Origin: Acidimicrobiia bacterium
GTDB taxonomy: Bacteria > Actinomycetota > Acidimicrobiia > Spongiisociales > UBA5794
Direction of reading: 5' to 3'
Length of the DNA stretch: 40,560 nt
Assembly: GCA_027036355.1 (NCBI GenBank)
Contig: JALVQZ010000101.1
Span: 1 to 40,560 of the forward strand
Under the pieces are notes generated by a model. That model saw nothing but the letters and a program-made list of their open reading frames with translations, had not been told where the DNA came from and searched no databases. Shown piece by piece: positions 8,038 to 35,020 of this stretch. How positions within the stretch are numbered: the first letter of the stretch is position 1; every line of letters begins with the position of its first letter. The position numbers and the translations under genes were made by a program.

Positions 8038-9856
8038 ATGGCGCTCCCCGACCCCGAACGCGACGTCACGTCGTTCTGGTCCGTCGTTCGCGGCGGTGCC
8101 CGCCTCATCGGCCGTTTCGTCCGCTGGCACCCCTGGGCCTTCACGCTCGCCGTCGCCGGCGCCGGCGTGTTCGTGTCGGCCATCGTGGCGTCGGCCGTCG
8201 TCGTCGGTCGGGTGTCCGACCTCGTGATCATCCCGGTACTCGGTGGGGGAGCGCCTCCGGACCGGAGGCTGTGGTGGGCGGTCGCGGCGATCGTCGCGGT
8301 GTCGTTGTGGAAGGCCGCCGGGATCACCCTGCGGCGGACCGCGGCGTCGTGGCTGCAGTACCGAACCCGCGCCGATGCCCGCCAGAAGCTCATCGATCAC
8401 CAGCTCACCCTCGATCTGGCCTGGCACGATTCCCGTTCGACGGGCGACCTGATGTCGATCTCCGAGGTCGGACACCCAACAGGGGACCTTCGTCCTGGCG
8501 CCGCTGCCGTACGCCACCGGCGCGTCCTTCCTGCTGGTGGCCACCATCGTGCTGGTCGCCATCATCGATCCACTCCTCGGGCTCGTCGCCCTCGTCGGGC
8601 TCACCGTCGTCGTCGGTGTCGACGTGTTCGGGGCGTTCTCGATGTTCGACGACTTCGAGGCCTCCCAGTCCCTCCGGGGCGAAGTCGGTCGGGTCGCCCA
8701 CGAGAGCTTCGATGGAGCCCTCACCGTCAAGGCCCTGGGGCGAGAACGGACCGAGGAGGAACGGTTCCGCAGGGCCGCCGATCGCCTCCGCGACAAGCTC
8801 ATCGAGGTCGGCGTCCGCTTCGCCTCGTTCCGGGCCTGGGTCGAAGCCCTTCCCGCGCTCGTGACCCTGGCGATCCTCGTCCTCGGGGCGTTCCGCGTGG
8901 CCGCCGGCGCGGTCACTCCGGGCCAGCTCGTCACCGTCGCCTACCTCGTGACCCTCATGGCGTTCCCGCTGCAGCTCCTCGGCTTCGTCATCTGGGAGAT
9001 GGCCCACTCGCAGGCCGCGTGGACCCGGGTCCAGGAGGTGCTGGACGCCGGAGAGGTCGTCGAACACGGTCCGATCGTCGCCGCCGACGTCGAGGAGGGC
9101 ACGGCGTTGCGTTCCGACGCGGTGACCTTCGCCTACCCCGGTGGACCGCCGGTCCTCACCGACGTTCGCCTCCACGTCGAACCGGGAACCACCGTCGCGC
9201 TCGTCGGCCCCACCGGCTCGGGGAAGTCGACGCTGGCGATGCTCTTCGCTCGTCTGTGGGATCCGGTCGACGGCACCATCACGCTCGACGGCCGCGACGT
9301 CCGTTCGTTCGCCCGGTCCGAGCTTCCCCGCGAGGTCGCGTACGTGGCCCAGGACGCGTTCTTGTTCGACGACACCGTACGAGGCAACATCCTGCTCGGC
9401 ATCGACGCGCCCGAAGGGGAGTTCCTCGCCGCCGCGCGCCTGGCCGGGGTCGATCGGTTCATCCCCGAGCTTCCCGCCGGGTACGGGACCCGGATCGGCG
9501 AACGGGGCACCGCCCTGTCGGGAGGTCAGCGCCAGCGGGTCGCGCTGGCTCGGGCGCTCGTCCGGCGGCCACGCCTGCTCGTCCTCGACGACGCGACCTC
9601 GGCGGTGGATCCCTCGGTCGAAGCCCAGATCCTGCGTCGACTCAAGGGCTCCGAGTTGCCGTCGACGATCGTGCTCGTCGCCTACCGGCGATCGTCGATC
9701 CTGCTGGCCGACGAGGTGGTGTTCATCGACGAGGGGCGCATCGCCGGACACGGAAGCCATACCGAGCTGCTCGACATCCCCGGCTACCGGCGCCTCCTCG
9801 AAGCGTACGCCGAGGACGCCGACGCCCGCGGGGAGGTCTCCGATGCGCGCGCCTGA
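8038..9856 (+). pseudogene. ABC exporter fused permease/ATPase subunit 1, reading frame broken by an apparent 1-nt insertion near 8470
   Basis: The N-terminal TMD reads in frame 1 from ATG 8038 (MALPDPERD...HDSRSTGDLMSISEV). The rest reads in frame 2 (DTQQGTFVLAPLPYATGASFLLVATIVLV... through Walker A GPTGSGKST, signature LSGGQRQR, Walker B LLVLDDATS) to the stop at 9856. Frame 2 has a TGA at 8450-8452, so the switch must lie between 8453 and about 8476. Confidence 0.75.
8467..8473 (+). other. Probable frameshift site (GTCGGAC where GTCGAC would restore the frame)
   Basis: Deleting one G gives ...LMSISEVDTQQGTFVLAPLPYATG..., a continuous ABC TMD sequence. Confidence 0.55.
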
Positions 9857-15654: not shown

Positions 15655-16113
15655 TCAGCGGCCGATGTCCTCGTTCCACAGGTCCGGCCGCTCGGCCATG
15701 AACGCCTCCATGAGGGCCACACACCGAGGGTCGTCGGCGACCACGACCTCGACCCCACGGGCGACCAGCAGCCGTTCTCCTCCGACGTACGAGCGGTGCT
15801 CACCGATCACGACCCGCGGGATGCCGTACAGCAAGATCGCGCCGGTGCACATGTCGCACGGCGACAGCGTCGTCACCATCGTCGCTCTCCGGTACACCTC
15901 GGCCGGGAGGCGCCCGGCGTCTTCGAGCGCGTCCATCTCGGCGTGGAGGACGACGCTGCCCCGCTGGACCCGGCGGTTGTGGCCCCGGCCCACGATCGCG
16001 TCGTCGACGACGAGGACGGCGCCGATCGGGATCCCACCCTCGTCCAGCCCGGCGCGCGCCTCGGCGACCGCGGCATCGAGATGAGACCGGGCGGACCGAT
16101 CAGCGCTCGACAT
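15655..16113 (-). CDS. Cytosine deaminase, FCY1 (CMP/dCMP-deaminase fold) type
   Basis: Tail of ORF 15655..17400, trimmed to ATG 16113 with GGAGG upstream. HAEMDAL zinc motif. TTLSPCDMCTGAILLYGIPRVVIGE...RGVEVVVADDPRCVALMEAFMAERPDLWNEDIGR is near-collinear with yeast Fcy1 as I remember it. Confidence 0.85.
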   Translation of the reverse strand: MSSADRSARSHLDAAVAEARAGLDEGGIPIGAVLVVDDAIVGRGHNRRVQRGSVVLHAEMDALEDAGRLPAEVYRRATMVTTLSPCDMCTGAILLYGIPRVVIGEHRSYVGGERLLVARGVEVVVADDPRCVALMEAFMAERPDLWNEDIGR

Positions 16114-16269
16114 GGTCGACCTCCGCTCGCATCGTGTCCTTCCCTCGGTGGGGACCACCCTACGCGTCGCGGGGCTCGGCGGTCGGCGGAGGACCGGTTC
16201 GCCCCCGCGTATCATGCACCCCGTGCTGCTCGTCGCCTCATCGATCGCCGGCGCCGGATCCGGCCGCTG

Positions 16270-17181
16270 ATGCGTCCTCTCGGCGTCGGCATCCAGCTCC
16301 CCGAGGTGGAGCGGGTCGTTCCCTGGCCCGAACTCGAAACGATGGTCCGCGAGATCGAGGACCTGGGATTCGACTCGATCTGGGTGGGGGACCACCTCCT
16401 GTACGACACCCCCGAGGGCCGGCGCGGGCCGTGGGAGGCGTGGACCCAACTCGCCGCGATCGCCGCGGTCACCGAGCGGGTGACCCTCGGACCGTTGGTG
16501 GCCTCGACCAGCTTCCACGCCCCGGCGATGCTCGCCAAGCAGGCGGCCACCGTCGACGAGATCGCCGGTGGGCGCCTCGTCGTCGGCCTCGGCGCCGGAT
16601 GGAACCGGATCGAGTACGACGCGTTCGGGTTCCCGTTCGACCACCGAGCGAGCCGGTTCATCGAGTCCTTTGAGGTGATCCGGCGGATGCTGGCCGGCGA
16701 GCGGGTGGACTTCGACGGTCGGTACGTCACGGTCCAGGGAGCCGAGCTGCTGCCCCCGCCGCGTCCGGGCGGTCCGCCGCTCATGGTCGGCTCCATCGGC
16801 CCTCGGGTGCTGGACGCCACGTTGGGCCACGTGGCGATGTGGAACGCCTGGTTCTCGTGGTACGGCAACACGGCGTCGGGGATCGGGGACCTGCGCCGGG
16901 AGGTCGCGGCGGCGGCGCGTCGGACAGGCCGCGACGCCGAGGACATCGAGTACACGGCGGCGGTCCTCGTCGCCCTCCCCGGCGCCGTCGGGAGGGACAG
17001 CCACGATCACGACGACCACCGAGTGACCCCGCTGGCCGCCGACCGTCCCGGCGCCGTCGCCGACGAGCTGCGCCGGTTCGCCGAGGCCGGGATCGGCCAT
17101 GTCCAGCTCGTCGTCGACCCGATCACCGTCGAATCGATCCGGCGTCTCAGCGACGTCCTGGTGATCCTCGACCGCGGGTAG
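16270..17181 (+). CDS. LLM-class (luciferase-like) flavin/F420-dependent oxidoreductase
   Basis: ORF 15796..17181, trimmed to ATG 16270 (MRPLGVGIQLPEV...). Motifs: FDSIWVGDHLL, LGPLVASTSF, GGRLVVGLGAGW. Confidence 0.8.
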   Translation: MRPLGVGIQLPEVERVVPWPELETMVREIEDLGFDSIWVGDHLLYDTPEGRRGPWEAWTQLAAIAAVTERVTLGPLVASTSFHAPAMLAKQAATVDEIAGGRLVVGLGAGWNRIEYDAFGFPFDHRASRFIESFEVIRRMLAGERVDFDGRYVTVQGAELLPPPRPGGPPLMVGSIGPRVLDATLGHVAMWNAWFSWYGNTASGIGDLRREVAAAARRTGRDAEDIEYTAAVLVALPGAVGRDSHDHDDHRVTPLAADRPGAVADELRRFAEAGIGHVQLVVDPITVESIRRLSDVLVILDRG

Positions 17182-19127: not shown

Positions 19128-21875
19128 TCAGCCGTCCGAGCCGGCGATGATGCCGAGGATGTCGTCTCCGTAGTCCTCCAGCTTCTTCGGTCCGATGCCG
19201 GGCACGGCGAGGAGTTCGAGCTCGTCGGTCGGACGGGACGAGGCCAGCGCCTCCATCGTTTTGTTGTCGAAGACCACGTAGGCGGGGACCCCGAGTCGCC
19301 GTGACGTCTCGAGACGCCAGCTGCGGAGCCGCTCGAGCAGCCCGGCGTCGGGGGTGGGAGGGGCCAGCACGACCACTTCGCCGATGTCGGCGACCACTTC
19401 GGCGCCCGTGGCCAGCGCGACGGTGACGGTACCCACTCCGATCCCCGAGACGATCCCCTCGTACCCGCCGGTCACTCGTACGGCGGCACCGGGACCGATC
19501 CGTGACGTCGCCGGCGCCTTCCGGTCGGCGGCGACCGGCTCGTCGACCTCGGGAGCGGCGGTTCCCGCCAGCTCGGCGAGGAACCGCGACGGACGGGCCG
19601 CGTCGGCCAGCACGACGGCCGATTCGCTCGCCCGGGTGATCGCGACGTGGAAGATCCGGCGCTCCTCCTCGACGTCGGCGGCCAGGTCGTGGGGCATCGC
19701 TCCCCGGTCGGCGCCGAAGATCACGACCTTGGGCCACTCCATCCCCTTGACGCGATGGACCGACGAGAGGGTCACCCCGTCGGGGCGGGGAGGAACATCG
19801 AGCGCGGCCGCCAACCACGGGACGAACCCGTCGAGCTCTCGATGGAGGGCGCCGGCGCGACGGATCGCGACCAGGTCGTCGACGTGGCCCGATCTCGCTG
19901 CGTTCGTCCGGCCGGCATCGAGCGCGCCCGCGGCGGAGCCGAGCCCGACGTCGTCGATGAGGAAGGCGAGGAGCCTCCCGGCATCACCGTCTCGCGCGAG
20001 CCGGTTCGCCTCCACGATGTCGGCGAGATAAGCGTTCCATCGGGACGCTTGCCGCCCATCGAGCCGGCCACCGAGTTCCATGAGGTCGGGGAGCTCGTAG
20101 CGGGATCGGGTGAGGAGCTCCCGAGCCAGCGTCGTCAGCCCCCGCCCGGGGCGACGGATCGTCTCGAGCACGGTCCGTCTGGCGATCCGTTCGGGCTTCG
20201 TCGCGATCCTGATCCAGGAGAGGAGCGCCCGCACCGTCGTGCGTTGCAGCTGACCGGCGTCGAGCAGGTCGTTGGTGGGGATGCCACGCTCGACGAGCGC
20301 AGCCTTGATCGGCACGAGCGTCGAGTTGACCCGGGACAGGACGGCGATCTCGTCGTGGGCGGCGCCGGCGGCGAGCCATCCCTCGACGAGGTCGGCCGCG
20401 ATCGAGGCCAAGTCGAGCCCTCGGTGCTCGCCGACGTTCAGGCCGGAGGTGCCCTTGACGGCGTCGATGGTCTTGTCGATCCGGCGACGGTTGTACGACA
20501 GCAACGTCGCTGCGCCGGTGACCACGTCGGCGGGGCAGCGGTAGTTGCGGGTGAGGGCATGATGGGCGGCCCCGGGGAAGTAGTGATCGAAGTCGATCAG
20601 GAACGCCGGATCGGCCCCGGCGTAGCCGTAGATCACCTGATCGTCGTCGCCGACCCCGAACACGTCGAGCTCGGGAGCGGCGAGGAGCCGGATCAGGAGC
20701 ACGTAGGCCGGAGTCAGATCCTGGAACTCGTCGACGAGGACGTGCCGGCATCGTCGCTGCCATCGGGCCCGCAGCTCCGGGTCGCGCAACAGCACCTCGA
20801 TCGCCCCGTACACCTGCTCGCCGTGGTCGACCCGGCGACGGCGGTACATGCGCCGGCGGTACCGGTCGAAGGCGTCACCGAACCCGACGACGTCGTCCCT
20901 GGAGGCCTCCACGACCGCGGGATCTCGCAGGCCCGCCCGGACCTCGTCGAGCGCTTCGAGGTACGGCCCGAGGGCGTCGGCGTTGGCTCGCCGGGGGGTC
21001 GAGACCAGCTTGTCGAACTCGGCGCGGACCTCGAGATCGTCGACGAGATCGAGATCCGGATGGGCGTCGGTCAGGATGGCCCATCCCAGCGAATGGATCG
21101 TCCGGACCATCGATCGGTCGGCATCGACCCGTTCCCTGAGCTCGCCGGCTGCCTTGGCGTTGTAGGCGACGGCGACGACCGACCCGGGCTCTACGCCGAC
21201 ATCGTCGAGAAGATGCCGGAACCGGGCCGCCAGGGTCCTCGTCTTGCCGGATCCGGCCGGAGCGATGATCCGGGCCGGGCCCGCGCCGTGCATGACCGCC
21301 TCGATCTGGTCCGCGGCCAGTGACCACGGATCTCGGCCGGGCGTCAGGTCACGCACCGGTGTGGTCCGGGCGGCGTCGATCGTCTCGCCGTGGATCACCG
21401 GTGCGTCGAGCGCCGGGAGCGGCTGGCGAGGCCCGCCGTCGATCCACGCCGGCGTGCCGTCGGCCATGATGACGTCGGCCGGGCCTCCCGGCTCGGCCCC
21501 GACGCTCCGGGCAGCCTTGGTCGCCCACCACCATCGCGGGTCGCCATGGCGCATGTCGTAGCTGTTGGTGAAGACGAGGAAGCGCAGCCGTTCCCGGGGG
21601 AAGAGGAAGTCGACGGGAACCGACCAGACGGGACGGTCGTCGACCTCGGCGACGGCCAGTGCGTCGTCGTCGATCGCCCATTCGACGACCACCGGTTCGC
21701 GTCGGACCCAGCAGCGCTGGAGCCTCTCGATCGTCTCGCCGAGCCGTTCGTCGTCGTCGATGACGGCGTCGTCGAGTCGCACTCGGCGCGAGTTCGCCCA
21801 CGGTGCGGGAGGAGCCGTGTCGGGCCGGACGACGACGCCGCGGCCCAGGAGGGATGGACCAGGGATGGTGGTCAT
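19128..21875 (-). CDS. UvrD/Rep-family DNA helicase with ~190-aa N-terminal extension, small beta-barrel (Tudor-like) segment and C-terminal HRDC domain
   Basis: ORF 19128..22838, trimmed to ATG 21875 (MTTIPGPSLL...); everything upstream is antisense to the DEAD-box gene. Walker A APAGSGKTR, VLVDEFQDLTP, YRCP, VHRVKGMEWPKVVIFG, FHVAITRA. C-terminal HRDC-like segment: LLERLRSWRLETSRRLGVPAYVVFDNKTMEALASSRPTDELELLAVPGIGPKKLEDYG. Confidence 0.85.
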   Translation of the reverse strand: MTTIPGPSLLGRGVVVRPDTAPPAPWANSRRVRLDDAVIDDDERLGETIERLQRCWVRREPVVVEWAIDDDALAVAEVDDRPVWSVPVDFLFPRERLRFLVFTNSYDMRHGDPRWWWATKAARSVGAEPGGPADVIMADGTPAWIDGGPRQPLPALDAPVIHGETIDAARTTPVRDLTPGRDPWSLAADQIEAVMHGAGPARIIAPAGSGKTRTLAARFRHLLDDVGVEPGSVVAVAYNAKAAGELRERVDADRSMVRTIHSLGWAILTDAHPDLDLVDDLEVRAEFDKLVSTPRRANADALGPYLEALDEVRAGLRDPAVVEASRDDVVGFGDAFDRYRRRMYRRRRVDHGEQVYGAIEVLLRDPELRARWQRRCRHVLVDEFQDLTPAYVLLIRLLAAPELDVFGVGDDDQVIYGYAGADPAFLIDFDHYFPGAAHHALTRNYRCPADVVTGAATLLSYNRRRIDKTIDAVKGTSGLNVGEHRGLDLASIAADLVEGWLAAGAAHDEIAVLSRVNSTLVPIKAALVERGIPTNDLLDAGQLQRTTVRALLSWIRIATKPERIARRTVLETIRRPGRGLTTLARELLTRSRYELPDLMELGGRLDGRQASRWNAYLADIVEANRLARDGDAGRLLAFLIDDVGLGSAAGALDAGRTNAARSGHVDDLVAIRRAGALHRELDGFVPWLAAALDVPPRPDGVTLSSVHRVKGMEWPKVVIFGADRGAMPHDLAADVEEERRIFHVAITRASESAVVLADAARPSRFLAELAGTAAPEVDEPVAADRKAPATSRIGPGAAVRVTGGYEGIVSGIGVGTVTVALATGAEVVADIGEVVVLAPPTPDAGLLERLRSWRLETSRRLGVPAYVVFDNKTMEALASSRPTDELELLAVPGIGPKKLEDYGDDILGIIAGSDG

Positions 21876-22139
21876 GGTGGTGCAGCGTAGAGGCGGGGTC
21901 GGACAGCGATGCCGCGACGGTACGGTGGTAGCGCCCGTCGCGGGGCTATCATGGCGTCCGAGCCGCTGCGGCGGGCGAGGCCCGCACCGAATGGATGCGC
22001 ACCCGTCGCAGGACCAACGGCTCGTTCCACTCCTCGGGTCGACCGCCTCGATCTTCCCCGCCCGTCCGTCGCCGACCGACGCCGGGTTCGAGTTCGTCAT
22101 CGACCAGTCCGCAGCCGCGGACGTCAGGAGCCAGAGACC

Positions 22140-23492
22140 ATGACCACCCCGACCTTCGCCGATCTCGGCGTGCCCAAGCACTTCACGAAAGTGCTCCGCG
22201 CCAACGGCATCGACACCCCCTTCCCCATCCAGGCCGCCACCATCCCCGACGCCCTCGCCGGTCGCGACGTCCTCGGCCGGGCCCCAACGGGCTCGGGCAA
22301 GACGCTGGCGTTCGCCATCCCCCTGCTCGCCAACGTCGAGCGGGGTCGGCCCCATCATCCCAAGGCGCTCGTTCTCGCTCCCACCCGCGAACTCGCCGAT
22401 CAGATCAAGCGAGAGTTCTCGTTGCTCGCCCAAGCCGCCGAGCGGCGCATGGTCGCCATCTACGGCGGGGTCTCCTACCGCCCCCAGCGAGACAAGCTCC
22501 GACGCGGTGTCGACGTCGTGATCGCGACGCCCGGTCGCCTCGCCGACCTCATCGAGCAGGGCGACATCTCCCTCGACGAGGTCGACCACGTGGTCGTCGA
22601 CGAGGCGGACCGGATGGCCGACATGGGCTTCCTCCCCGAGGTGCGGCGCCTCCTGGACATGACCGCCGCCGATCGCCAGACCGTGCTGTTCTCGGCCACC
22701 CTCGACGGGGACGTGGCGACGCTGACCCGCCGCTACCAGCGCGACCCGGTCCGTCACGAGGTCGGATCCGAGACCCCGGACGCCGGCACCGCCCGCCATC
22801 ACTTCTGGCGGGTCGGACACAGTGACCGGGTCGGCCACACCGCCGCCGTCGTCACCGCGTCGGAGTCCACGATCGTGTTCACTCGAACGCGACGCGGCGC
22901 CGACCGGCTCGCCGGTCAGCTGTCACGGGAAGGCGTGCGAGCGATCGCCATCCATGGGGGCCGCACCCAACGCCAACGGAACAAGGCCCTCAAGGACTTC
23001 GCCGGCGGCCGCGTGGAGGCGCTCGTCGCCACCGACGTGGCGGCTCGCGGCATCCACGTCGACGGGGTGGACGCGGTGGTGCACTTCGATCCGCCCGACG
23101 ACGAGAAGGCCTATCTGCACCGTTCCGGCCGTACGGGCCGGGCAGGCGCTTCCGGATCGGTCGTGTCGCTCGTCCTCGGCGATCAGGTCCGCGACGCCCG
23201 TGACCTCCAGTACCGTCTCGGCCTCAGCGGGACGTTCTCGGATCCTGCGGTCGACGCGCTCGACGACGAAGGCGGCGAGCAGCTCGGTGATCATCCGGTT
23301 CGCACGACGGCCAAGCCGCGTCGCGGCGGAGGCAAGGGCGGCCATCGCGGCGGTTCGCGCGGTGGGCAGCACCGCCGGGCCCGGGCTCGTACCTCAGGCG
23401 GGCGTTCGTCCCAGGGCGGATCCGGCCGAGGCCGCGCCGGCCGGGGCGGGTCCGGTCGGGGCGCCTCGAGGCGTAGGAGCGCGGGCCGCTGA
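22140..23492 (+). CDS. DEAD-box ATP-dependent RNA helicase with Arg/Gly-rich C-terminal tail
   Basis: ORF 21909..23492, trimmed to ATG 22140 (MTTPTFADLGVP...). Q-motif FPIQ, APTGSGKT, VVDEADRM, SAT, HRSGRTGRAG. The tail is RGGGKGGHRGGSRGG...GRGRAGRGGSGRG. Confidence 0.9.
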   Translation: MTTPTFADLGVPKHFTKVLRANGIDTPFPIQAATIPDALAGRDVLGRAPTGSGKTLAFAIPLLANVERGRPHHPKALVLAPTRELADQIKREFSLLAQAAERRMVAIYGGVSYRPQRDKLRRGVDVVIATPGRLADLIEQGDISLDEVDHVVVDEADRMADMGFLPEVRRLLDMTAADRQTVLFSATLDGDVATLTRRYQRDPVRHEVGSETPDAGTARHHFWRVGHSDRVGHTAAVVTASESTIVFTRTRRGADRLAGQLSREGVRAIAIHGGRTQRQRNKALKDFAGGRVEALVATDVAARGIHVDGVDAVVHFDPPDDEKAYLHRSGRTGRAGASGSVVSLVLGDQVRDARDLQYRLGLSGTFSDPAVDALDDEGGEQLGDHPVRTTAKPRRGGGKGGHRGGSRGGQHRRARARTSGGRSSQGGSGRGRAGRGGSGRGASRRRSAGR

Positions 23493-23520: not shown

Positions 23521-25314
23521 TCAGTAGGCGGTCGTCCGGAAGACCGGCTGGAACAGGTCGATCTTCCGGGCGCACACCGACGCCAGCGGGCACGTCCCGC
23601 AGCTCGGTCGGCCGATCTCGACGCAATGCGACCGGGCGACCGAGAAGACGAACCCGTCGACCGCTCCCATGGGAAGGCCCGACCGCGAGGCGAGCTCGGC
23701 GATCGCATCGTGGGTGGCACCGCGGATGGCCGCCTCCGTGGAGGCGTCGACCCAGGAGCGTGCGGCCAACAGATCTCCGACGGAGGCCTCCACCGTCACG
23801 CAACCCGACCGGAGGCACACCCGCATCAGGTGATAGTCGACGATCGGGCCCGGCTCGGTGTCGCCGCCGAGGAAACGCTCGGGCCGGTTCCGGTAGATGA
23901 GCGCCAGGAGCCTCGCCTTCTTGTGCAGCGGGTCCTCCCGGAACCCCGGCACCTCCGCGAGCGATGCCACGAAGGTGCCGACCGGATCCGGTGACCGGTT
24001 GGCGGCGGCCACGAGCGACCCGATCCCGCCTCGCCGGGCCATCGCCCAGCCATACGCCTGTTGGAGCAGCCGGTGCGAACCGACGTCGGGGACCGGACAT
24101 TCCCCGTCGTCGTCGACGCAGATCCGGTCGAACAACAGCGGGTCGGAGGCGAGTCGAGCCAGGTCGATGGCCGCCGGGTCGGACTCCACGGCCGCGGTGA
24201 AGCGCTCCCACACCACATCGGACCCCTTGCGCCGCCGGCCGCCGACGTCGGCCCACATGGGAGCGAGGTACCCGTGGTCGTCGTCGTACCAGAAGCCGTA
24301 CTGGTGGAGGGTGGCGACGGCCAAGGTCTCGAGGGCATGGGGCGACCCGACCGGGGGGAATCCGGGTCCGGCGAAGTCCAGTGCCGCCCCGACCGCTTCG
24401 GTGGCGACGACGCCGGAGACGGCGTCGACCTGGTCCGGAGCGACCTGCGCCACCGACGGGGCGGGGATCGCCGAGGCGGGCGGTGGGCCGATCCTCGGTC
24501 GGAGCCGGTCCAGCAGCGGTGCCGCTCCGAGCCCCGACAGGACCTCTCCCGCCCGCGTCATGGCCGAGCCGACCGGGTCACCGCCGCCCAGCATGGCACC
24601 GAGATAGCCACCGCAGAACGCATCGCCGGCGCCGGTGGGATCGATCACGTCGAGGCTCGGGGCGCGATGATGGCTCCAGCGGGAGCCATCCCACACGTCG
24701 GCGCCGTCCGCACCCTTGGTCACCACCACCACCGTGTCGTCGGGCGGTCGGGAGCCGAAGATCAGCGTCGCCTCGGCCTCGTTGCAGAACGCCACGTCGG
24801 CACGGTCGAACAACGCTCGCACGGCGTCGGGATCGCCGGCCGCATCGCCGATGAACGTCCCCACGCTCAGTCCCCCTCCATAGCCGCGGGCGACGAGGCC
24901 CGCCACGAACGCCGCCTGTACCTCGACCGCGGATCCGATGGGGGCCACATGGATCCACCGAGCCGTCAGCCAGCGACGGGGAACGTCCGTCGCCGTCAGG
25001 GCGGTCTCGGCGCCCATCGACGCCGGCCCGTAGTGGGCGGCCTGATCGTCGTCGTACGTGATCGTGAACCGCGGAAGCGAGCCATCGACCACCACGAGCC
25101 CGGACGGGTCGAGCATGCCTGGCCCGAAAGCGCCCGCGATCGGGTCGGGCAGACTCCGAGGTACGCGGGCGACGATACCCGAGCGGGTGCCCGAGACCGT
25201 TGCGGCCAGGGCCGTGATGAACCCCGACCCACCCACCGTCGCGTAGGTGGTTCCGCCGACCGAGATGCGGTCCTGGGAGGGGGTCCCGACGACGACGAGC
25301 TCAGGGGCTTCCAT
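23521..25314 (-). CDS. Fusion protein: N-terminal PfkB/ribokinase-family kinase + C-terminal DUF2419/QNG1-like (queuosine-salvage glycosylase-like) domain ending in a Cys4 motif
   Basis: Uninterrupted 597-aa ORF. PfkB motifs: ATVGGSGF and DPTGAGDAFCGGYL. The C-terminal half has motifs resembling human QNG1/C9orf64 as remembered: TLHQYGFW vs TLNFSFW; LHKKARLLALI vs FYKRAQILVAD; IVDYHLMRVCL vs FADYRLPQVL; terminal PVFRTTAY vs FHRIRCIYY. CVEIGRPSCGTCPLASVC lies near the end. Confidence 0.6.
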   Translation of the reverse strand: MEAPELVVVGTPSQDRISVGGTTYATVGGSGFITALAATVSGTRSGIVARVPRSLPDPIAGAFGPGMLDPSGLVVVDGSLPRFTITYDDDQAAHYGPASMGAETALTATDVPRRWLTARWIHVAPIGSAVEVQAAFVAGLVARGYGGGLSVGTFIGDAAGDPDAVRALFDRADVAFCNEAEATLIFGSRPPDDTVVVVTKGADGADVWDGSRWSHHRAPSLDVIDPTGAGDAFCGGYLGAMLGGGDPVGSAMTRAGEVLSGLGAAPLLDRLRPRIGPPPASAIPAPSVAQVAPDQVDAVSGVVATEAVGAALDFAGPGFPPVGSPHALETLAVATLHQYGFWYDDDHGYLAPMWADVGGRRRKGSDVVWERFTAAVESDPAAIDLARLASDPLLFDRICVDDDGECPVPDVGSHRLLQQAYGWAMARRGGIGSLVAAANRSPDPVGTFVASLAEVPGFREDPLHKKARLLALIYRNRPERFLGGDTEPGPIVDYHLMRVCLRSGCVTVEASVGDLLAARSWVDASTEAAIRGATHDAIAELASRSGLPMGAVDGFVFSVARSHCVEIGRPSCGTCPLASVCARKIDLFQPVFRTTAY

Positions 25315-25332
25315 GGCGTCACCGTACCGGCG

Positions 25333-27162
25333 TCAGTTCCGCTTCTTCAGCCGCTTCCGCTCCGACTCGGTGAGATGCCGCTTGCGCAGGCGGATCGATT
25401 TCGGTGTGACCTCGACCAGCTCGTCGTCGGCGATCCATTCGATGGCGGTCTCGAGGGTGTGGACCTTCGGCGGCTTCAGCTTGATCGCCTCGTCGGTCGA
25501 ATGGGTGCGGATGTTGGTGAGCTGCTTGCCCTTGGTCGGGTTGACCTGCATCTCGCCCGGACGCGTCGATTCCCCGATGATCATCCCCTCGTAGACCTCC
25601 TCGCCGGGACCGATGAACAGCTCCCCGCGCTTCTGGAGGTTGTCGAGGGCGAAGCCGGTCGACGCTCCGCGACGGTCGGCGACCATCGCCCCGCCCTGCC
25701 GGTGGGGAAGGTCCCCCGCCCACGGCATCCAGCCGGCGTGCTGCTGATGGATCAGCGCGGTTCCTCTGGTGGCGGTCATCAACAGCGAGCGGAACCCCAG
25801 CAGACCCCGCGCCGGCGCCTCGACCGTCACGATGGTCCGACCGCTGTCGCCGGGTCGGAGATCCGTCACCCGGCCCTTCCGAGGGGCGATCGCCTGGGTG
25901 ACGGTCCCCACGTGCTCGTCGGGTACGTCGACGACGGCCCGTTCCAGCGGTTCGTGCGGAGCCCCGTCGATCTCACGGAGGATCACCTCGGGGCGAGAGA
26001 CCTGGAGCTCGAAGCCCTCTCGCCGCATGGTCTCGATGAGCACGGCGAGCTGGAGCTCGCCGCGGCCGGCGACCTCGATGACCTCCGGCGACGAGGTCGC
26101 TCCGATCCGTATCGACACGTTGCCGAGCACCTCCCGGTCCAGACGTTCCCTGATCTGGCGCGACGTCAACAGCGTCCCCTCGGTGCCCGACAGCGGGGAG
26201 GTGTTCACCCCGAAGGTCATCCGCAGCACCGGCTCGTCCACCGTCAGGCGGGGCAGCGGCTCGGGGTTCGTGGCGTCGGCCAACGTGTCGCCGATCTCCA
26301 CTTCGGGGAACCCGGCCACCACGAACAGATCTCCGGCGACGCGTTCGGTCACCTCGTCGCGGCCCAGCCCCGAGAACCCGAGCAGCTGGGTCAGCTTGCG
26401 TCGAAGCGGTGGCTCGTCCTCGTCGGCGTGGCACAGCGCCACCTGCTCCCCGGCTCGGAGGGTCCCCTGGACGACCCGGCCGATGGCGAGGCGGCCGAGA
26501 TAGTCCGAGGCGTCCAGGTTCGTCACCAGCGCCTGGAGGGGGGCGTCGGGATCGCCTGCGGGGGCCGGGATGGTCTCGACGATCGCGTCGAGGAGCGCCG
26601 AGAGGTCCGCGTCGGGTGCCGGCATGCCGGTCCCCGCCATCGTCCGGCCCTCCCGGGCGATGGCCGAGATGATCGGGAACTCGATGTGGTGGTCGGCCGC
26701 GTCGAGGTCGAAGAACAGTTCGTAGATCTCGTCGGCGACCTCGTCGACCCTGGCGTCGGAGCGATCGACCTTGTTGATCACCACGACCGTCGGGAGATGA
26801 CGTGCCAGCGCCTTCGACAGGACGTAGCGGGTCTGGGGCATCGGGCCCTCGGCGGCATCGACGAGGAGGAGGACGCCATCGACCATCGTCAGGGCCCGTT
26901 CGACCTCACCACCGAAGTCGGCATGGCCGGGAGTGTCGACGAGGTTGATCTTCGTGCCGTTCCACGCCACGGAGGCGGCCTTGGCGAGGATCGTGATCCC
27001 TCGTTCGCGCTCCTGATCGTTCGAGTCCATCACCCGATCGACGCGCGTCTCGTGCGCGGCGAAGACCCCGGTTGCGGTCAACATGGCGTCGACGAGGGTC
27101 GTCTTGCCATGGTCGACGTGCGCGATGAGCGCGACGTTGCGGAGATCGGGAGCGGGCATCAC
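25333..27162 (-). CDS. typA: Translational GTPase TypA/BipA
   Basis: 609 aa. [40 protein letters not shown], and the C-terminal BipA-specific region. The start is GTG 27162 or ATG 27159. Confidence 0.95.
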
Positions 27163-27263
27163 CGAAGCGTACCGGGCCCTGGGCGTTGATCGACTTCACC
27201 TCCAGCTCGTCACGAACGCGGTCGATGACATCAGGTACACTCCGTCGCATCCGAGGAGGCCCG

Positions 27264-28175
27264 ATGGCGCAGTTCACGATCGTTCCCGACGACGAACACG
27301 CGGCCGCGGCGGCCATCCCGTTGACGATCCCTCCTGATCTGGTGCCCCCCGAACTGCTCGAGCGGATCCGCACCGCGGAGAAACGCGAGATCATCTGCGA
27401 CACCTACCCGTACCGGGAGAAGATGGGCCGCGCCGAGTACGAGAAGCAGAAGCGGCTCCTCCAGATCGAGATGCTCAAGGTGCAGCGATGGGTCCGCGAG
27501 ACCGGCCAGCGGCTCGTGCTCCTGTTCGAAGGTCGCGACGCCGCCGGCAAGGGCGGCACGATCAAGCGGTTCATGGAGCATCTCAATCCCCGCGCCGCCC
27601 GGGTCGTCGCCCTGGAGAAGCCCACCGAGGTCGAACGGGGCCAGTGGTACTTCCAGCGGTACATCGCCCAGCTCCCGACCCGAGGTGAGATCGTCTTCTT
27701 CGACCGTTCCTGGTACAACCGGGCCGTCGTCGAGCCGGTGATGGGGTTCTGCACCCCCTCGGAGCATCACGTGTTCCTCCGGGAGGCCCCCGTCGTCGAG
27801 AACATGCTCGTGGAGAACGACTTCCATCTCTTCAAGTTCTGGTTCTCGGTCAGCCGCGAGGAACAGCTCCGACGGTTCCTCTCTCGCGCCCAGGATCGGC
27901 TCAAGCAGTGGAAGCTGAGCCCCGTCGACATCGAATCCCTCGGGCTGTGGGACGAGTACACCGAGGTCAAGAAGGCGATGTTCATGGCGACCGACACGAA
28001 GATCGCGCCGTGGACCGTGGTCCGGTCCGACGACAAGAAGCGGGCGAGGCTGGCGACCATGCGGTTCGTCCTCGATCAGCTCGACTACCCGTCGAAGGAC
28101 CGTGAGGTGGTCGGGGCGCTCGACCCGCTCGTCGTCGGCCCGAAGGAACGGATCTACGAAGGTGACGACTGGTAG
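27264..28175 (+). CDS. ppk2: Polyphosphate kinase 2 (single-domain PPK2)
   Basis: ORF 27186..28175, trimmed to ATG 27264 with GAGGAGG at 27253-27259. Walker A-like FEGRDAAGKGG, plus QWYFQRY and FDRSWYNRA. Confidence 0.9.
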   Translation: MAQFTIVPDDEHAAAAAIPLTIPPDLVPPELLERIRTAEKREIICDTYPYREKMGRAEYEKQKRLLQIEMLKVQRWVRETGQRLVLLFEGRDAAGKGGTIKRFMEHLNPRAARVVALEKPTEVERGQWYFQRYIAQLPTRGEIVFFDRSWYNRAVVEPVMGFCTPSEHHVFLREAPVVENMLVENDFHLFKFWFSVSREEQLRRFLSRAQDRLKQWKLSPVDIESLGLWDEYTEVKKAMFMATDTKIAPWTVVRSDDKKRARLATMRFVLDQLDYPSKDREVVGALDPLVVGPKERIYEGDDW

Positions 28176-31159: not shown

Positions 31160-32149
31160 TCACCAGCGCTGATGGACGTGAGGGGCGATGAGGTCCCGGT
31201 AGATGGCGGCGACCCGCCTGCGTGTTCCGGCGTCGAGGGGCTCGAGCGTCGAGGCCGACGCGTTGGCCGCTGCCTGATCGGGGTTCTTCGCTCCTGGGAT
31301 CACCGTCGACACGGACGGATCGTCGAGGATCCATCGGAGGGCGAACTGCGCCATGGTCCAGCCTTCGGGAACCAGGGGGCGGAGCTGGTCGACCGCCGCC
31401 AACCCCACCTCGTAGGGCACGCCGGCGAACGTCTCGCCCACGTCGAACGCCTCGCCGCGGCGGTTGAAGCGGCGGTGGTCGTCGGGAGCGAACTCGGTGT
31501 CGGCGCCGAACTTGCCGGTCAGGAGTCCGCTGGCCAGCGGGACGCGGGCGATCACCCCGACGTCGCGTTCTGCGGCGAGGGGCAGGAACCGTTCGGCGGG
31601 CCGTTGCCGGAACATGTTGTAGATGATCTGGACGGTCTCCACCCCCGGGTACTCGAGGGCCTTGAGGGCCTCCTCGACCTTCTCGACGCTGACCCCGTAG
31701 TGGCGGATCTTGCCTTCGGCGACGAGGTCGTCGAGGGCAGCGAAGACCTCGGGCCGGTAGTAGACCTCGGTCGGGGGGCAGTGGAGTTGCAGGAGGTCCA
31801 ACGACTCCATCTGGAGGTTGGCCAGGCTGCGGTCGACGAACATCCGCAGGTTCTCGGCGGTGTAGCCGTCGGCCCGATGCGGCGACAGGCGGCGGCCGGC
31901 CTTGGTGGCGACCACGAGCCGCACGGCGGGTCGGGCGCGCCGGATGGATCCCACGAGACGCTCGGATCGTCCGTCGCCGTAGACGTCCGCGGTGTCGATG
32001 AAGTCGACGCCATGGTCGATCGCGGTCTCGAGCGCGGCGATCGCGTCGTCCTCGGTGACCGGGCCCCAGTCGGCGCCGATGGCCCATGCCCCGAACCCGA
32101 CCTCGGACACCTCGTGCCCGGTGCTTCCCAGTCGTCGATGCCGCACCAT
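31160..32149 (-). CDS. Aldo/keto reductase
   Basis: 329 aa. LGSTGHEVSEVGFGAWAIG, FIDTADVYGDGRSE, LDLLQLH, IPGAKN. GAGGAGGTG lies immediately upstream. It sits 5 nt upstream of the deaminase gene. Confidence 0.9.
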   Translation of the reverse strand: MVRHRRLGSTGHEVSEVGFGAWAIGADWGPVTEDDAIAALETAIDHGVDFIDTADVYGDGRSERLVGSIRRARPAVRLVVATKAGRRLSPHRADGYTAENLRMFVDRSLANLQMESLDLLQLHCPPTEVYYRPEVFAALDDLVAEGKIRHYGVSVEKVEEALKALEYPGVETVQIIYNMFRQRPAERFLPLAAERDVGVIARVPLASGLLTGKFGADTEFAPDDHRRFNRRGEAFDVGETFAGVPYEVGLAAVDQLRPLVPEGWTMAQFALRWILDDPSVSTVIPGAKNPDQAAANASASTLEPLDAGTRRRVAAIYRDLIAPHVHQRW

Positions 32150-32232
32150 CCACCTCCTCGGCTCGACACCCTACCCTCGGCGGCGACGCCGGCTCCGGCG
32201 TCGCGCCGACGTCGGGGCGGTACCGTAGGTCC

Positions 32233-33225
32233 ATGAGATACGGAGCGTTCATCCCCCAAGGTTGGAGACTGGACCTGGTCGGTATCGATCGGTCACGGCA
32301 CTGGAGCACGATGCTCGAAGTGGCCCGCAGCATCGAGTCGTCCGGTTACGAGTCGCTGTGGGTCTTCGACCATTTCCACACGGTCCCCGAGCCCACCCAG
32401 GAGGCCACCTACGAGGCTTGGACCTTGATGGCCGCGCTCGCCGCCACCACCGACACGGTGCGTCTGGGTCAGATGTGCACCTCGAACTCGTACCGGATGC
32501 CGTCGTATCTGGCCAAGGTCGCCGCCAACGTCGACGTCATCTCCGACGGCCGATTGGAGATGGGTATCGGCGCCGGATGGTACGAGCACGAGTACCTCGG
32601 CTACGGCTACGAGTTCCCCAAGGCGTCGGTTCGGATCGATCAACTCGCCGAAGGCGTCGAGATCATGCACCGGATGTGGGGGGACGAGGACGAGGTCGTC
32701 TACGAAGGTCGCTACTACCGGCTCGCAGGCGCCATCAACCAACCCAAGCCGGTGCAGCGGCCGCGGATCCCGACGTGGATCGCCGGGGGAGGAGAGCGGC
32801 GGACGTTGCGGGTCGCGGCTCGATTCGCCGACTACACGAACTTCGGGTCGAGCGTCGACGAGTTCGTCCACAAGTCCGAGGTCTTGGCGGGGCACTGCCG
32901 GGACGTCGGGCGCGACCTCGACCAGATCACCAGGTCGATCATGTTCGGAGCGGTGGTCGGGGCCACCGAACGCGAGGTCGTCGACAAGCTCGACCGCTAC
33001 GAGGCGCGGATGGCGGCGGTCGTCGGTTCGGCCAAGGCCGCCGAGATGCGCGCCGCCTACGAGCGATCCGCCGCCGTGGGTACCCCGGATCAGATCGCCG
33101 AACGCCTGGAACCGTGGGAGGCGGCCGGCGCCGAGTACGTGATCCTCTACTTCCCCGAGGCGGCGTACGATCGGTCGGGCCTGGAGCTGTTCGCCGCCAC
33201 GATCGTGGCCGGCTCCTCGTCCTAG
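32233..33225 (+). CDS. LLM-class F420-dependent oxidoreductase (Rv1855c-like pattern)
   Basis: ORF 32086..33225, trimmed to ATG 32233 (MRYGAFIPQGWRLDL...). YESLWVFDHF, GRLEMGIGAGWYEHEYLGYGYEFP. Confidence 0.8.
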   Translation: MRYGAFIPQGWRLDLVGIDRSRHWSTMLEVARSIESSGYESLWVFDHFHTVPEPTQEATYEAWTLMAALAATTDTVRLGQMCTSNSYRMPSYLAKVAANVDVISDGRLEMGIGAGWYEHEYLGYGYEFPKASVRIDQLAEGVEIMHRMWGDEDEVVYEGRYYRLAGAINQPKPVQRPRIPTWIAGGGERRTLRVAARFADYTNFGSSVDEFVHKSEVLAGHCRDVGRDLDQITRSIMFGAVVGATEREVVDKLDRYEARMAAVVGSAKAAEMRAAYERSAAVGTPDQIAERLEPWEAAGAEYVILYFPEAAYDRSGLELFAATIVAGSSS

Positions 33226-34160
33226 GGGCCCGTCGGCGTCGCGACCCGGCGTGTGGGGCTGCGTCCGGCGAGGAACACGCCGGCGATGGTCATCGCTCCC
33301 CCCACGACGATGGGGATGCTGAGGTGCTCGCCGAGGAGCGCGACGCCGCCGACCACGCCGATCACCGGAGCGAGGTAGCCGGTCAGCGCCACCGTTGCCG
33401 CCGTGGCGTGGCGCGACGCGTACAGCGTGGAGACGAACGGAAGCAGCGTCGATCCGATACCGAGGGCGATCAGGAGGAACCAGGTCGATGGGCCCAGCGA
33501 TGCGGTCCGCACCGACGACGTGGCGAGTCCGAAGCCCGAGACGACCGCCGCTCCCCCCACGAACATCGGCAGCGCCAGTTTGGCGGTGCCGTGGTGAGGG
33601 GCGAACCGCCGGCTCAGAACGCCGCTGGTGGAACCCGCGGCGACCCCTCCGAGCGCGAGGAGCCCACCGCGAACGACGTCTCCTCCCTCGGCGATCCCGG
33701 ACTCGCCGGCGGCGATGATGAGCGCGGTACCCGCCAGGCCGACGGCCAGGCCGACGAGCTGCCGCCGCCGGAGGCGCTCACCGATCGTCACCGCGGCGAT
33801 GCCGGCGGTGGTCGCCGGGATGAGGGTGATGATCAGGCTCTCGACGCCGGCCGAGATGTACTGGAGCGACGCCATGAACAGCATCGGCGCGATACCGATC
33901 CGAGGGATCCCGATGATCAGCCCGTCGCGCCACGTACGTCGTTCGAGCCGGTGACGGCGGGCCACGGCGAACGCCACCACCGCGGCGGTGGCGACGAGCG
34001 TGCGGATCACGACCACGGTCGAGGTGTTGGCTCCCGCTCCGTAGGCCGCTCGGGTTCCCACCCCGGCCAAGCCCCATCCGACCGACGCGGCCGCGATGGC
34101 GATCGGTACGCGGTTGCGGATCATCCCCGTGACGCTACCGGTCGTCGACCGGTCGGTCAT
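33222..34160 (-). CDS. EamA/DMT-family transporter
   Basis: 312 aa with about 10 hydrophobic segments and two EamA-like halves. The start may be the internal ATG at 34124 (MIRNRVPIAI...), which would remove the overlap with the upstream gene. The stop overlaps the convergent LLM gene stop by 4 nt. Confidence 0.75.
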   Translation of the reverse strand: MTDRSTTGSVTGMIRNRVPIAIAAASVGWGLAGVGTRAAYGAGANTSTVVVIRTLVATAAVVAFAVARRHRLERRTWRDGLIIGIPRIGIAPMLFMASLQYISAGVESLIITLIPATTAGIAAVTIGERLRRRQLVGLAVGLAGTALIIAAGESGIAEGGDVVRGGLLALGGVAAGSTSGVLSRRFAPHHGTAKLALPMFVGGAAVVSGFGLATSSVRTASLGPSTWFLLIALGIGSTLLPFVSTLYASRHATAATVALTGYLAPVIGVVGGVALLGEHLSIPIVVGGAMTIAGVFLAGRSPTRRVATPTGP

Positions 34161-34578
34161 CGACCGGCCGCAGCAGGACGATGGGGATCTCGCGGCTCGT
34201 GCGCGCCTGGTAGGTCGCGTAGCCGTCGTAGGCGTCGACCGCCCGCTCCCACAAGGCGTTCCTCCGGTCCCCGACGAGCGTCTCGGCTTCGACGGGGATC
34301 GTATCCGCGCGGATCTCGATCCGGCATCTCGGGTCGGCCTTCAGATTGGTGTACCAATCGGGATCGGTGTCGCGTCCGCCCCATGAGGCGATCACGACCC
34401 ATCCGTCGGGTTCGGTCAGGTAGAGGAGCGGGACCGTGTGCGGACGGCCCGTCGTCCGGCCCCGCACCGTCAGTAGGAGCATGTCGTTGTCGACCAGGCG
34501 CCGACCGATCCGCCCGCCGGTGAGTCGGTAGACGCGTCGATGGATCGCGGAGAGCCGGCGGGCCGTCGCGTCCTTCAC
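34135..34578 (-). CDS. Nitroreductase-family deazaflavin (F420H2)-dependent oxidoreductase (Ddn-like)
   Basis: Lower part of ORF 34135..34755, with the start placed at GTG 34578 (VKDATARRLSAIHRRVYRLTGGRIG...). LLLLTVRGRTTGRPHTVPLLY, VVIASWGGRDTDPDWYTNL, REIPIVLL. No clear SD. Confidence 0.7.
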   Translation of the reverse strand: MKDATARRLSAIHRRVYRLTGGRIGRRLVDNDMLLLTVRGRTTGRPHTVPLLYLTEPDGWVVIASWGGRDTDPDWYTNLKADPRCRIEIRADTIPVEAETLVGDRRNALWERAVDAYDGYATYQARTSREIPIVLLRPVDDRPVDDR

Positions 34579-34585
34579 GGGCCGG

Positions 34586-35020
34586 TCAGGCGCGTGAGTA
34601 CAGGCCGACGAGGAACGCTTCGTCGAGGACGCGATTGGCGATGGCTCCCAGCACGGTGGCCTTGTCGGCGCCCGGGGGAAGCCCCAGCGAGCCGTCGATG
34701 GCGAAGACGTGGAAGACATAGCGGTGGGTGCCGCTCGGCGGGCAGGGACCGCCATACCCGAGCCGGCCCCACGAGTTGAGCCCCGGTGTGCCGAGGTCCG
34801 CGACGCCTTCGGGGATCTCCTCGGTGGGAGGGATGTCGTAGGCCACCCAGTGGTCCCACGTTCCCATGGGCGCGTCGGGGTCGTCCATGATGAGAACGAG
34901 CGTCTCGGTTCCAGCGGGGATCCCGACGATCTCGAGGGGAGGGGACACGTCCTCGCCGTCGCACGTGTATCGGGCAGGGATCCGTCCTTCGTTGGCGAAT
35001 GCGGGGGAACGCAGCAGCAT
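34586..35020 (-). CDS. YbhB/YbcL-family PEBP (Raf kinase inhibitor-like) protein
   Basis: 144 aa. [21 protein letters not shown]...WDHW, [21 protein letters not shown]-type motif. GAGGAGG lies upstream. Confidence 0.85.
   Translation of the reverse strand: [144 protein letters not shown]

Follow-up and report, generated by a model that had tools for sequence, protein, structure and literature searches.

What reaction could call for a PfkB kinase and an N-glycosylase-like domain on one polypeptide chain? This question is raised by a gene in a contig of an Acidimicrobiia bacterium (JALVQZ010000101.1, assembly GCA_027036355.1), whose whole analysed stretch of 40,560 nucleotides is referred to here as the window. 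The gene occupies positions 23521..25314 of the minus strand, from an ATG at 25314 to a stop codon at 23521-23523, and encodes 597 amino acid residues: an N-terminal kinase and a C-terminal domain that resembles the glycosylase Qng1 and carries a putative iron-sulfur (Fe-S) site. An earlier interpretation made from the DNA letters (hereafter, the sequence-only reading) had described an uninterrupted 597-codon open reading frame (ORF) for an enzyme that phosphorylates and then cleaves queuosine or another modified nucleoside. The ORF list bears out the uninterrupted frame, on the minus strand; the plus-strand reading of the same interval has a stop, and the GC content at third codon positions is 0.88, like that of the adjoining genes. 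The two-domain architecture and the kinship to Qng1 in that proposal stand, and we consider it probable that the protein is a bifunctional small-molecule enzyme, which would convert a guanine-type modified nucleoside to its 5'-monophosphate and then to the free base and ribose-5-phosphate. Specificity for queuosine is not supported: the residues that cage queuosine in Qng1 are replaced.

The fusion architecture is real and conserved across phyla. A homologue search of 5.8 billion proteins (E ≤ 1e-3) yielded 172 homologues of the fusion protein; among the 120 matches listed, most are 590-640 residues long, cover the full query and are 41-83% identical to it. Their names, where given, read "carbohydrate kinase family protein" or "sugar/nucleoside kinase (ribokinase family)"; public annotation sees the kinase half only and leaves the glycosylase half unannotated. 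One genome from each of 185,579 species was scanned with the C-terminal domain as query, and 206 of these genomes encode the domain; 80 loci were kept, 79 of which were classified locally with hidden Markov models for each half. All 80 kept loci come from uncultured genome assemblies, assigned to Acidimicrobiia and other Actinomycetota, Myxococcota/"Deltaproteobacteria", Chloroflexota, Gemmatimonadota (Ca. Palauibacter), Verrucomicrobiota/Kiritimatiellia, Patescibacteria, Acidobacteria and others. The taxonomic labels of nine metagenome-assembled genomes (MAGs; L029, L036, L040, L042, L045, L047, L054, L055 and L077; binchicken or SRP co-assemblies, 46-59% identical to the C-terminal domain of the window protein) look unreliable. 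Co-occurrence of the two domains and its taxonomic spread, which the sequence-only reading had proposed to examine, proved to be broad: both lie in one ORF at about 64 of the 79 loci, in several phyla, and the C-terminal domain stands alone at about 14, chiefly in Verrucomicrobiota/Kiritimatiellia and Patescibacteria.

Could the fusion still be an artefact, two genes merged through an indel or an assembly error? One locus of the 79 speaks for it: in an Acidimicrobiia MAG (L028) the halves are split between two ORFs that overlap and differ in frame (9039-9806 and 9131-10915), which is probably a frameshift or a sequencing error there. On the other side stand the recurrence of one ORF across several phyla, in about 64 genome assemblies that are independent of each other and in more than 100 protein clusters, and the AlphaFold2 (AF2) model of the full-length protein, with a mean predicted local distance difference test score (pLDDT) of 92.5 and a whole-chain predicted template modelling (pTM) score of 0.90. 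Since the single ORF recurs so widely, we regard an artefact as extremely improbable.

The C-terminal half (residues 297-597; 23524..24426, minus strand) is, as judged from its modelled fold and from profile alignment, a helix-hairpin-helix (HhH) N-glycosylase domain of the Qng1 type. Kinase matches dominated the full-length fold search, and we therefore modelled this domain by itself (AF2, pLDDT 94.2). The eleven best PDB matches of the model are all Qng1/DUF2419 proteins, from S. thermophilus and human (structures of this family are 7U07, 7U91 and 7UGK), and share its two-lobe HhH-type fold at template modelling (TM) scores of 0.71-0.77, a root-mean-square deviation of 3.1-4.7 Å, E = 3e-9 to 1.5e-7 and sequence identity of 14-20%. 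The next matches are MutY, at TM 0.46-0.51, and also AGOG. Against aligned canonical Qng1 sequences from eukaryotes, hhalign gave a probability of 93.4% with E = 2.5e-7 over 244 columns. Closest kinship to QNG1/DUF2419, as the sequence-only reading had it, is thus borne out by fold search and profile comparison; of the four motif pairings that it had drawn with the human protein, hhalign reproduced three column for column, and the fourth, that of the C-terminal tail, holds by inspection.

Direct sequence searches returned less. The Pfam Q_salvage/DUF2419 model (PF10343; threshold 25 bits), which had been expected to recognize the C-terminal half, leaves the window protein unmatched even at E ≤ 10. 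Scans of the full protein and of its C-terminal half against Pfam, NCBIfam and PADLOC gave significant matches with PfkB-type kinase models only and with no defence family; weak matches fell below the cut-offs for EndIII_4Fe-2S (14.9 bits, cut-off 20.5) and HhH-GPD (12.2 bits, cut-off 26.2). A PDB sequence search with the C-terminal domain alone had no match, and a PDB search with the family profile of this domain retrieved weak endonuclease III (EndoIII) Fe-S-loop matches (E ~0.5) and a spurious nucleoprotein, and did not retrieve Qng1. Relatives of the domain fill part of this distance. Five of 25 family members scanned singly match PF10343 (best E = 1.6e-9), as do several standalone relatives, and two of the proteins, P0106 and P0160, have both PF00294 and PF10343. 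The 736 cluster representatives retrieved at E ≤ 1e-3 by an exhaustive profile search include standalone forms of about 320 residues and a more Cys-rich group of about 335 residues that exceeds the Pfam Q_salvage threshold. The standalone and the Cys-rich forms bridge the fusion family to canonical Qng1. The Cys-rich sister clade (P0232, P0237, P0248 and P0231) has a longer C-terminus, very rich in Cys (...CCFYEHDPICDARICHKRDKCSF...FCPGKCVFDGTCLG...Y), which may accommodate two or more metal or cluster sites, and one of its members, P0231, has an extra N-terminal GIY-YIG nuclease domain (E = 1.4e-17).

Residues of the C-terminal domain were mapped onto S. thermophilus Qng1 (StQng1) through the hhalign alignment and their conservation was judged in an alignment of 31 diverse homologues; what we say of pocket geometry and of domain interfaces is read from these alignments. 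Six motifs stand out, all on the minus strand. HQYGFW (residues 337-342; 24289..24306; H337, Q338, G340, F341 and W342 invariant) aligns with LNFSFW of canonical Qng1, and the GSD of KGSD (24217..24228; G364, S365 and D366 invariant) with GYW, at high confidence. In DPLHKK (461-466; 23917..23934; D461, K465 and K466 invariant), K465 falls on the K of KRAQIL, and DYHLMR (493-498; 23821..23838; D493, Y494, H495 and R498 invariant) aligns with ADYRVPQ. They are followed by DGFVFSVAR (23632..23658; D553, F557 and R561 invariant, G554 nearly so) and by the terminal tail FQPVFRTTAY (23524..23553; F588, Q589, P590, R593, T594 and Y597 invariant). Every motif quoted in the sequence-only reading, including those of the kinase half described below, was found at verified coordinates.

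Eight invariant residues of the window protein fall on positions with roles established in the StQng1 structure (PMC9881137). The HhH-motif Lys K199 corresponds to K465, the nucleophile Asp D231 to D493, and Y232, which contacts ribose and phosphate, to Y494. F341 takes the place of the ribose-stacking F75 and L469 that of I203, which sandwiches the base. D298, which reads the N1/N2 edge of 7-deazaguanine, is matched by D553, and the base-stacking W302 by F557, with loss of the contact that the indole N-H makes to ribose O4'. Finally, the C-terminal Y323, whose carboxylate completes the active site, corresponds to Y597, which is the last residue in every one of the 31 aligned homologues. These proteins end in ...RTxxY and canonical Qng1 in ...HRTRSxxY, so that the tail is two residues shorter and has no His. 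In both models pLDDT is low over the last four residues, so that a bent conformation of the tail is a presumption at most. At the phosphate site, H495 aligns with the phosphate-contacting K233 of StQng1, R561 would fall, by spacing (D298 + 8), on the phosphate-binding Q306, and K363 adjoins the backbone position of Y93. The site is basic, and this favours a 5'-phosphorylated substrate.

The part of the pocket that recognizes queuosine is rebuilt. Of the residues that cage its cyclopentenediol in Qng1, Y93 is replaced by S365, W94 by the invariant D366 and W299 by the nearly invariant G554; the region of W48, also part of the Qng1 specificity pocket, is not aligned. The GSD/GYW register is given as well by an independent HMMER alignment of the relative P0237 with human QNG1, and the pocket Asp recurs across the Fe-S clade (KGSD, RGSD, KGTD, RGGD and similar). 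Because these specificity residues are replaced, queuosine cannot be assumed as the substrate. The β4-β5 hairpin of Qng1 is deleted: the hhalign alignment has an 8-column gap just before DPLHKK, and in the model the stretch from residue 452 to 465 is free of strands. Other small-molecule features of Qng1 are kept, namely the β-hairpin region after the FW motif (strands within 342-363 in the model) and the tail ending in Tyr. With a score below the Pfam threshold, a different queuosine pocket and no β4-β5 hairpin, the domain is best described, on its alignment and model, as a remote homologue from a sister clade in the same superfamily, and we do not class it with Qng1 itself.

A further difference from Qng1 was missed by the sequence-only reading. 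Between the base-binding helix and the C-terminal tail lies an 18-residue insert with four invariant Cys, C564-X7-C572-X2-C575-X5-C581 (23572..23625, minus strand), a putative [4Fe-4S] site. The classical EndoIII spacing is C-X6-C-X2-C-X5-C, one residue shorter. Weak matches to Pfam EndIII_4Fe-2S occur in 10 of 25 family members (best E = 0.033), and the family profile brings the loop into register with the Fe-S loop of EndoIII structures in the PDB. We infer that the four Cys bind a [4Fe-4S] cluster, the role of which is probably structural, by analogy with EndoIII and MutY.

The N-terminal half (residues 1-272; 24499..25314, minus strand) belongs to the PfkB family and is, as judged by sequence and model, an intact kinase of the PfkB/ribokinase fold. 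Pfam PfkB (PF00294) matches it with 51 bits (cut-off 25.8; E = 1.7e-13), in agreement with the sequence-only reading; the match spans profile positions 174-275 only, the C-terminal third of the model, and the N-terminal part is divergent. Foldseek retrieved ribokinase, 2-keto-3-deoxygluconate (KDG) kinase and nucleoside, adenosine and pseudouridine kinases over about 300 columns (target-normalized TM score (TMt) 0.61-0.74, E ~1e-14). In the same set of 31 homologues, D15 (25270-25272) is nearly invariant, and we take it to be at the position of the diol/ribose-binding Asp of the ribokinase family. Other motifs, all on the minus strand, are the GG dipeptide G28-G29 (25228..25233; G29 invariant, G28 nearly so), the NXXE motif (NEAE, residues 178-181; 24772..24783; N178 and E181 invariant) and DPTGAGD (225-231; 24622..24642), with T227, G228, A229, G230 and D231 invariant, where the anion hole and the catalytic base D231 would lie. 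The roles of these motif residues are presumably those established for the ribokinase family. A Pro/Ala-rich linker (residues 273-296; 24427..24498), with the lowest internal pLDDT (~71-73) and with length and sequence variable among homologues, joins the two domains.

What would such a protein do? In the scheme that we favour, the PfkB domain would phosphorylate the 5'-OH of a ribonucleoside and the C-terminal domain would then hydrolyse the N-glycosidic bond of the nucleoside 5'-monophosphate, giving the base and ribose-5-phosphate. The base should be guanine-like, since D553 preserves the Asp with which Qng1 reads the N1/N2 edge of guanine, and a modification at or close to position 7 or 8 is probable, since the pocket on that side is rebuilt with an invariant Ser-Asp. 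Ser-Asp and Gly in place of three aromatic residues argue that this side of the base differs from the bulky hydrophobic ring of queuosine. Candidates are nucleosides of the preQ1 and preQ0 type (7-deazaguanosines), queuosine, 7-methylguanosine (m7G) and 8-oxoguanosine (8-oxoG), none of which is singled out; one may speculate that the acidic residue suits a cationic or hydrogen-bond-donating group, such as the preQ1 aminomethyl group, m7G or the N7-H of 8-oxoG. A second and independent fusion of the Fe-S Qng1-like domain, with GTP cyclohydrolase II at its N-terminus (P0199; E = 4.5e-38; L091 10001-11665, also in L092 and L093), points to guanine nucleotides as substrate. Downstream of the P0199 gene and on the same strand lie genes for an Acetyltransf_6 protein, a 542-residue Methyltransf_4 protein (TrmB-type, guanine-N7 methyltransferase family), a glycosyltransferase 2 and a PIG-L deacetylase, a neighbourhood that looks like a small-molecule or nucleoside-modification cluster.

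The protein can be compared with several known systems. It shares with Qng1 the HhH Lys, the nucleophile Asp-Tyr pair, the ribose-stacking Phe, the guanine-edge Asp, an aromatic base stacker and the Tyr-ending tail, and with its basic residues at the phosphate positions it probably acts on a nucleoside 5'-monophosphate too; unlike Qng1 it has the four-Cys loop and the fused kinase, and its family was found in uncultured bacterial assemblies only (genome collection, 80 loci). EndoIII and MutY have the superfamily fold (TM ~0.5 for MutY), the C-terminal four-Cys loop and a catalytic Asp at the equivalent HhH position; in contrast to them, the window protein scores below threshold with both HhH-GPD and EndIII_4Fe-2S, carries the Qng1-specific tail and hairpin in the DNA cleft and a small-molecule kinase, and most likely has a mononucleotide as substrate. 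With the nucleoside kinases of the ribokinase family (3KD6; B. thailandensis BthNK, 3B1Q; M. tuberculosis adenosine kinase) the N-terminal domain has in common the fold (TMt 0.64-0.74), the GG, NXXE and DxTGAGD motifs and, with 3KD6, the pattern GGS..(Y/F)I(A/T)L past the GG motif; identity is only about 20%, and none of those kinases is fused to a glycosylase. A functional parallel is pseudouridine breakdown by PsuK/YeiC/PUKI and PsuG/YeiN/PUMY, where a PfkB kinase makes the monophosphate of a modified nucleoside from RNA turnover and a glycosidase releases the base and ribose-5-phosphate; PsuK is among the fold matches of the N-terminal domain. Both activities can share one chain, as the pseudouridine kinase and pseudouridine 5'-monophosphate glycosidase do in animals (PMC7797080). 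There, however, the fold of PsuG is unrelated to the HhH/Qng1 type, the bond cleaved is a C-C glycosidic bond, the base is a pyrimidine instead of a guanine-like purine, and the system has no Fe-S site.

Several results weigh against the proposed two-step enzyme, including the missing matches to Q_salvage and, in the PDB, to Qng1 described above. The acceptor of the kinase, nucleoside or sugar, is not readable from its sequence or fold: KDG kinase, ribokinase and nucleoside kinases all appear among the best matches, and the best PDB matches by phmmer are 1v19 (T. thermophilus KDG kinase) and then 3kd6 (a Chlorobium tepidum "nucleoside kinase"). The Fe-S loop of EndoIII and MutY contacts DNA, and a polymer substrate is formally possible. 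Genomic context, surveyed over nine encoding contigs and 80 genome loci with 10 kb on either side of each gene, lent the pathway no support. All-against-all clustering of neighbours (6 kb, 79 loci) found recurrence inside one syntenic Actinomycetota clade only and none across phyla. No PfkB kinase adjoins the standalone C-domain genes in the surveyed loci, and the genes that do flank them, such as nadD and rsfS in a few Verrucomicrobiota, give no clue to function. The tgt and que genes, for which the sequence-only reading had proposed to check the host genome, are absent from the window, as are an obvious nucleoside transporter and tRNAs; the related loci have no linked nucleoside transporter either. 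A tblastn search with E. coli tRNA-guanine transglycosylase (TGT) and QueA against 1.36 Mb of loci and the window placed tgt within 10 kb at a single locus out of about 90, in a Patescibacteria MAG where it lies 8.5 kb away from a standalone form; by a rough estimate this is about the chance expectation. This TGT retains the Val of the preQ1-type pocket motif and, as such, would not use queuine. Rfam scans of the window and 16 loci found no preQ1 or other purine-related riboswitch; the matches were tRNAs, RNase P and one thiamine pyrophosphate (TPP) riboswitch. The latter (L022, 16064-16173, plus strand, 60.5 bits) lies some 5 kb beyond the fusion gene on its downstream side, where it precedes an operon with thiamine pyrophosphokinase and ABC-transporter genes, and is unrelated. 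The fusion itself, not the context, is the main functional clue.

How do these results bear on other explanations? If Qng1 is taken as the guide to substrate as well as to fold, the protein would be dedicated to queuosine salvage, the kinase making queuosine 5'-monophosphate (Q-5'MP) and the Qng1-like domain releasing queuine for use by a TGT. Qng1 is the sole characterized family of this fold variant and the best structural match, the catalytic, ribose, guanine-edge and phosphate positions are conserved, and one Patescibacteria genome does have tgt near the standalone domain. Moreover, Q-5'MP is the preferred substrate of Qng1, as the sequence-only reading had stated, and it is made by a kinase that has not been identified (PMC9881137, 2023; PMC12207525, June 2025). 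The exchange of Y93, W94 and W299 for S365, D366 and G554, with the same Asp throughout the Fe-S clade, argues against such a dedicated role; so do the lack of queuosine genes in the window, the near-chance occurrence of linked tgt, the lack of preQ1 riboswitches in the window and 16 loci, and the preQ1-type Val of the single linked TGT, and we regard queuosine salvage as unlikely. The order of the two steps might also be reversed, the Qng1-like domain serving as a nucleoside hydrolase that yields base and ribose, and the PfkB domain as a ribokinase that traps ribose-5-phosphate. The N-terminal domain fits ribokinases as well as nucleoside kinases, standalone glycosylase genes have no linked kinase, and StQng1, on our reading of the data in PMC9881137, prefers Q-5'MP over queuosine only weakly in vitro (1.7-fold). 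A reversed order sits poorly with phosphate-pocket positions that are kept or more basic (H495, R561, K363) and with the GTP cyclohydrolase II fusion, which suggests a nucleotide and not a nucleoside as substrate. The kinase speaks against it as well: the ribose-binding residues at GG+1 and GG+4 are Lys and Asn in E. coli RbsK, and the window kinase has Ser and Ile there, resembling the nucleoside-kinase-like subfamily of 3kd6. Taken together, this makes the reversed order quite unlikely in our view.

The loop of four Cys invites a different comparison, with base-excision glycosylases of DNA or RNA, in which the Fe-S loop would bind the polymer and the kinase would have an accessory part in end processing or regulation. 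Besides this EndoIII/MutY-type loop, the place of MutY and AGOG next after Qng1 in the fold ranking, the deletion of the β4-β5 hairpin, which in Qng1 helps to block the DNA cleft, and the GIY-YIG nuclease fusion in the related Cys-rich clade are in keeping with a nucleic-acid substrate. The structural scores separate the two possibilities, with TM 0.71-0.77 to Qng1 versus at most 0.51 to any DNA glycosylase, and the terminal-Tyr tail and the β2-β3 hairpin region, which occlude the cleft (PMC9881137), are retained. The fusion partner comes from a small-molecule kinase family and the loci have no conserved repair-gene context, so that we hold a nucleic-acid glycosylase to be very unlikely. The phosphorylation of a guanine-type nucleoside followed by release of its base is thus the reading that we retain.

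Adjoining genes were inspected for further clues. Upstream of the fusion gene and on the same strand lies typA/bipA (25333..27162, minus; Pfam GTP_EFTU 3e-55, BipA_C 1e-44), separated from it by an 18-nucleotide spacer (CGCCGGTACGGTGACGCC; 25315..25332, minus) with a weak GGTGA Shine-Dalgarno-like element and no terminator-like or promoter-like site between the two genes. PPK2 (27186..28175, plus) is divergent from typA, and a DEAD-box helicase gene (21909..23492, plus) converges with the 3' end of the fusion ORF. The distance to the typA stop and the orientations of the fusion gene, typA and PPK2 relative to one another are as the sequence-only reading had described them; of the link that it had drawn to typA, adjacency and possible co-transcription hold and the functional weight does not. 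The order PPK2/typA/fusion/DEAD-box helicase is syntenic in an 83%-identical relative (P0002), and adjacency to typA is absent in four other lineages examined. Because adjacency is kept in the close relative only and the neighbours do not recur across phyla, we rejected a functional link between typA and the fusion; this is lineage-specific synteny, which allows co-transcription in the host and no functional inference. A translation-associated GTPase lies upstream of the fusion gene in three lineages: TypA in the window and in P0002; in the P0033 clade, an MMR_HSR1/TGS GTPase immediately before the gene (L004 8832-9836); and in the P0064/P0073 clade, YchF at a distance of about 3 kb (L001 5960-7051; L005 5741-6979). 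These GTPases belong to different families, and their position may be a coincidence. The P0064/P0073 lineage also has a PRK-family gene (PF00485, uridine kinase/phosphoribulokinase) directly upstream and divergent (L001 9243-9959, L005 9256-9972, both minus), a second nucleoside-kinase-like gene adjoining the fusion.

Elsewhere in the window, a 1236-residue ORF called mechanically at 19128-22838 (minus) is over-extended: UvrD-helicase and HRDC matches are confined to about its C-terminal 765 residues (19131-21425), further upstream it runs across the DEAD-box helicase gene of the opposite strand (21909-23492), and the syntenic gene in L007 encodes 894 residues. The window further contains two luciferase-like monooxygenases and an F420H2-dependent quinone reductase (15796-17178, 32086-33222 and 34138-34755), and its GC content is 70%. 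These F420-related genes and the GC content are consistent with an F420-using Actinomycetota host, and the nearest relatives are Acidimicrobiia MAGs.

A literature search found no report of a queuosine kinase, of a kinase-Qng1 fusion or of an Fe-S Qng1 homologue, and no kinase is mentioned in a comparative-genomics study of queuosine salvage in bacteria from 2024. The conserved fusion of a PfkB kinase to a Qng1-type domain offers a concrete candidate for the kinase class of the step from queuosine to Q-5'MP, and would be a self-contained two-step enzyme. A "Rosetta stone" argument may be built on it: the PfkB family would be the missing kinase class for Qng1-type glycosylases at large, and the Fe-S clade would salvage another 7-substituted guanine, for example preQ1. 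We put this forward tentatively and think it rather unlikely to hold as a whole. If it were true, ADK or RBKS would be candidates for the eukaryotic queuosine kinase, and the Fe-S clade would be an unrecognized, widespread sister family of Qng1 that salvages environmental nucleosides in uncultured bacteria. The putative Fe-S loop, the rebuilt specificity pocket and the other fusion partners, a PfkB kinase and GTP cyclohydrolase II, mark a branch of the superfamily with features that have not been described for Qng1. The identity of the substrate would reveal modified-guanosine recycling or detoxification in uncultured Acidimicrobiia, Myxococcota, Chloroflexota and others, and would carry the pseudouridine kinase/glycosidase paradigm over to purines.

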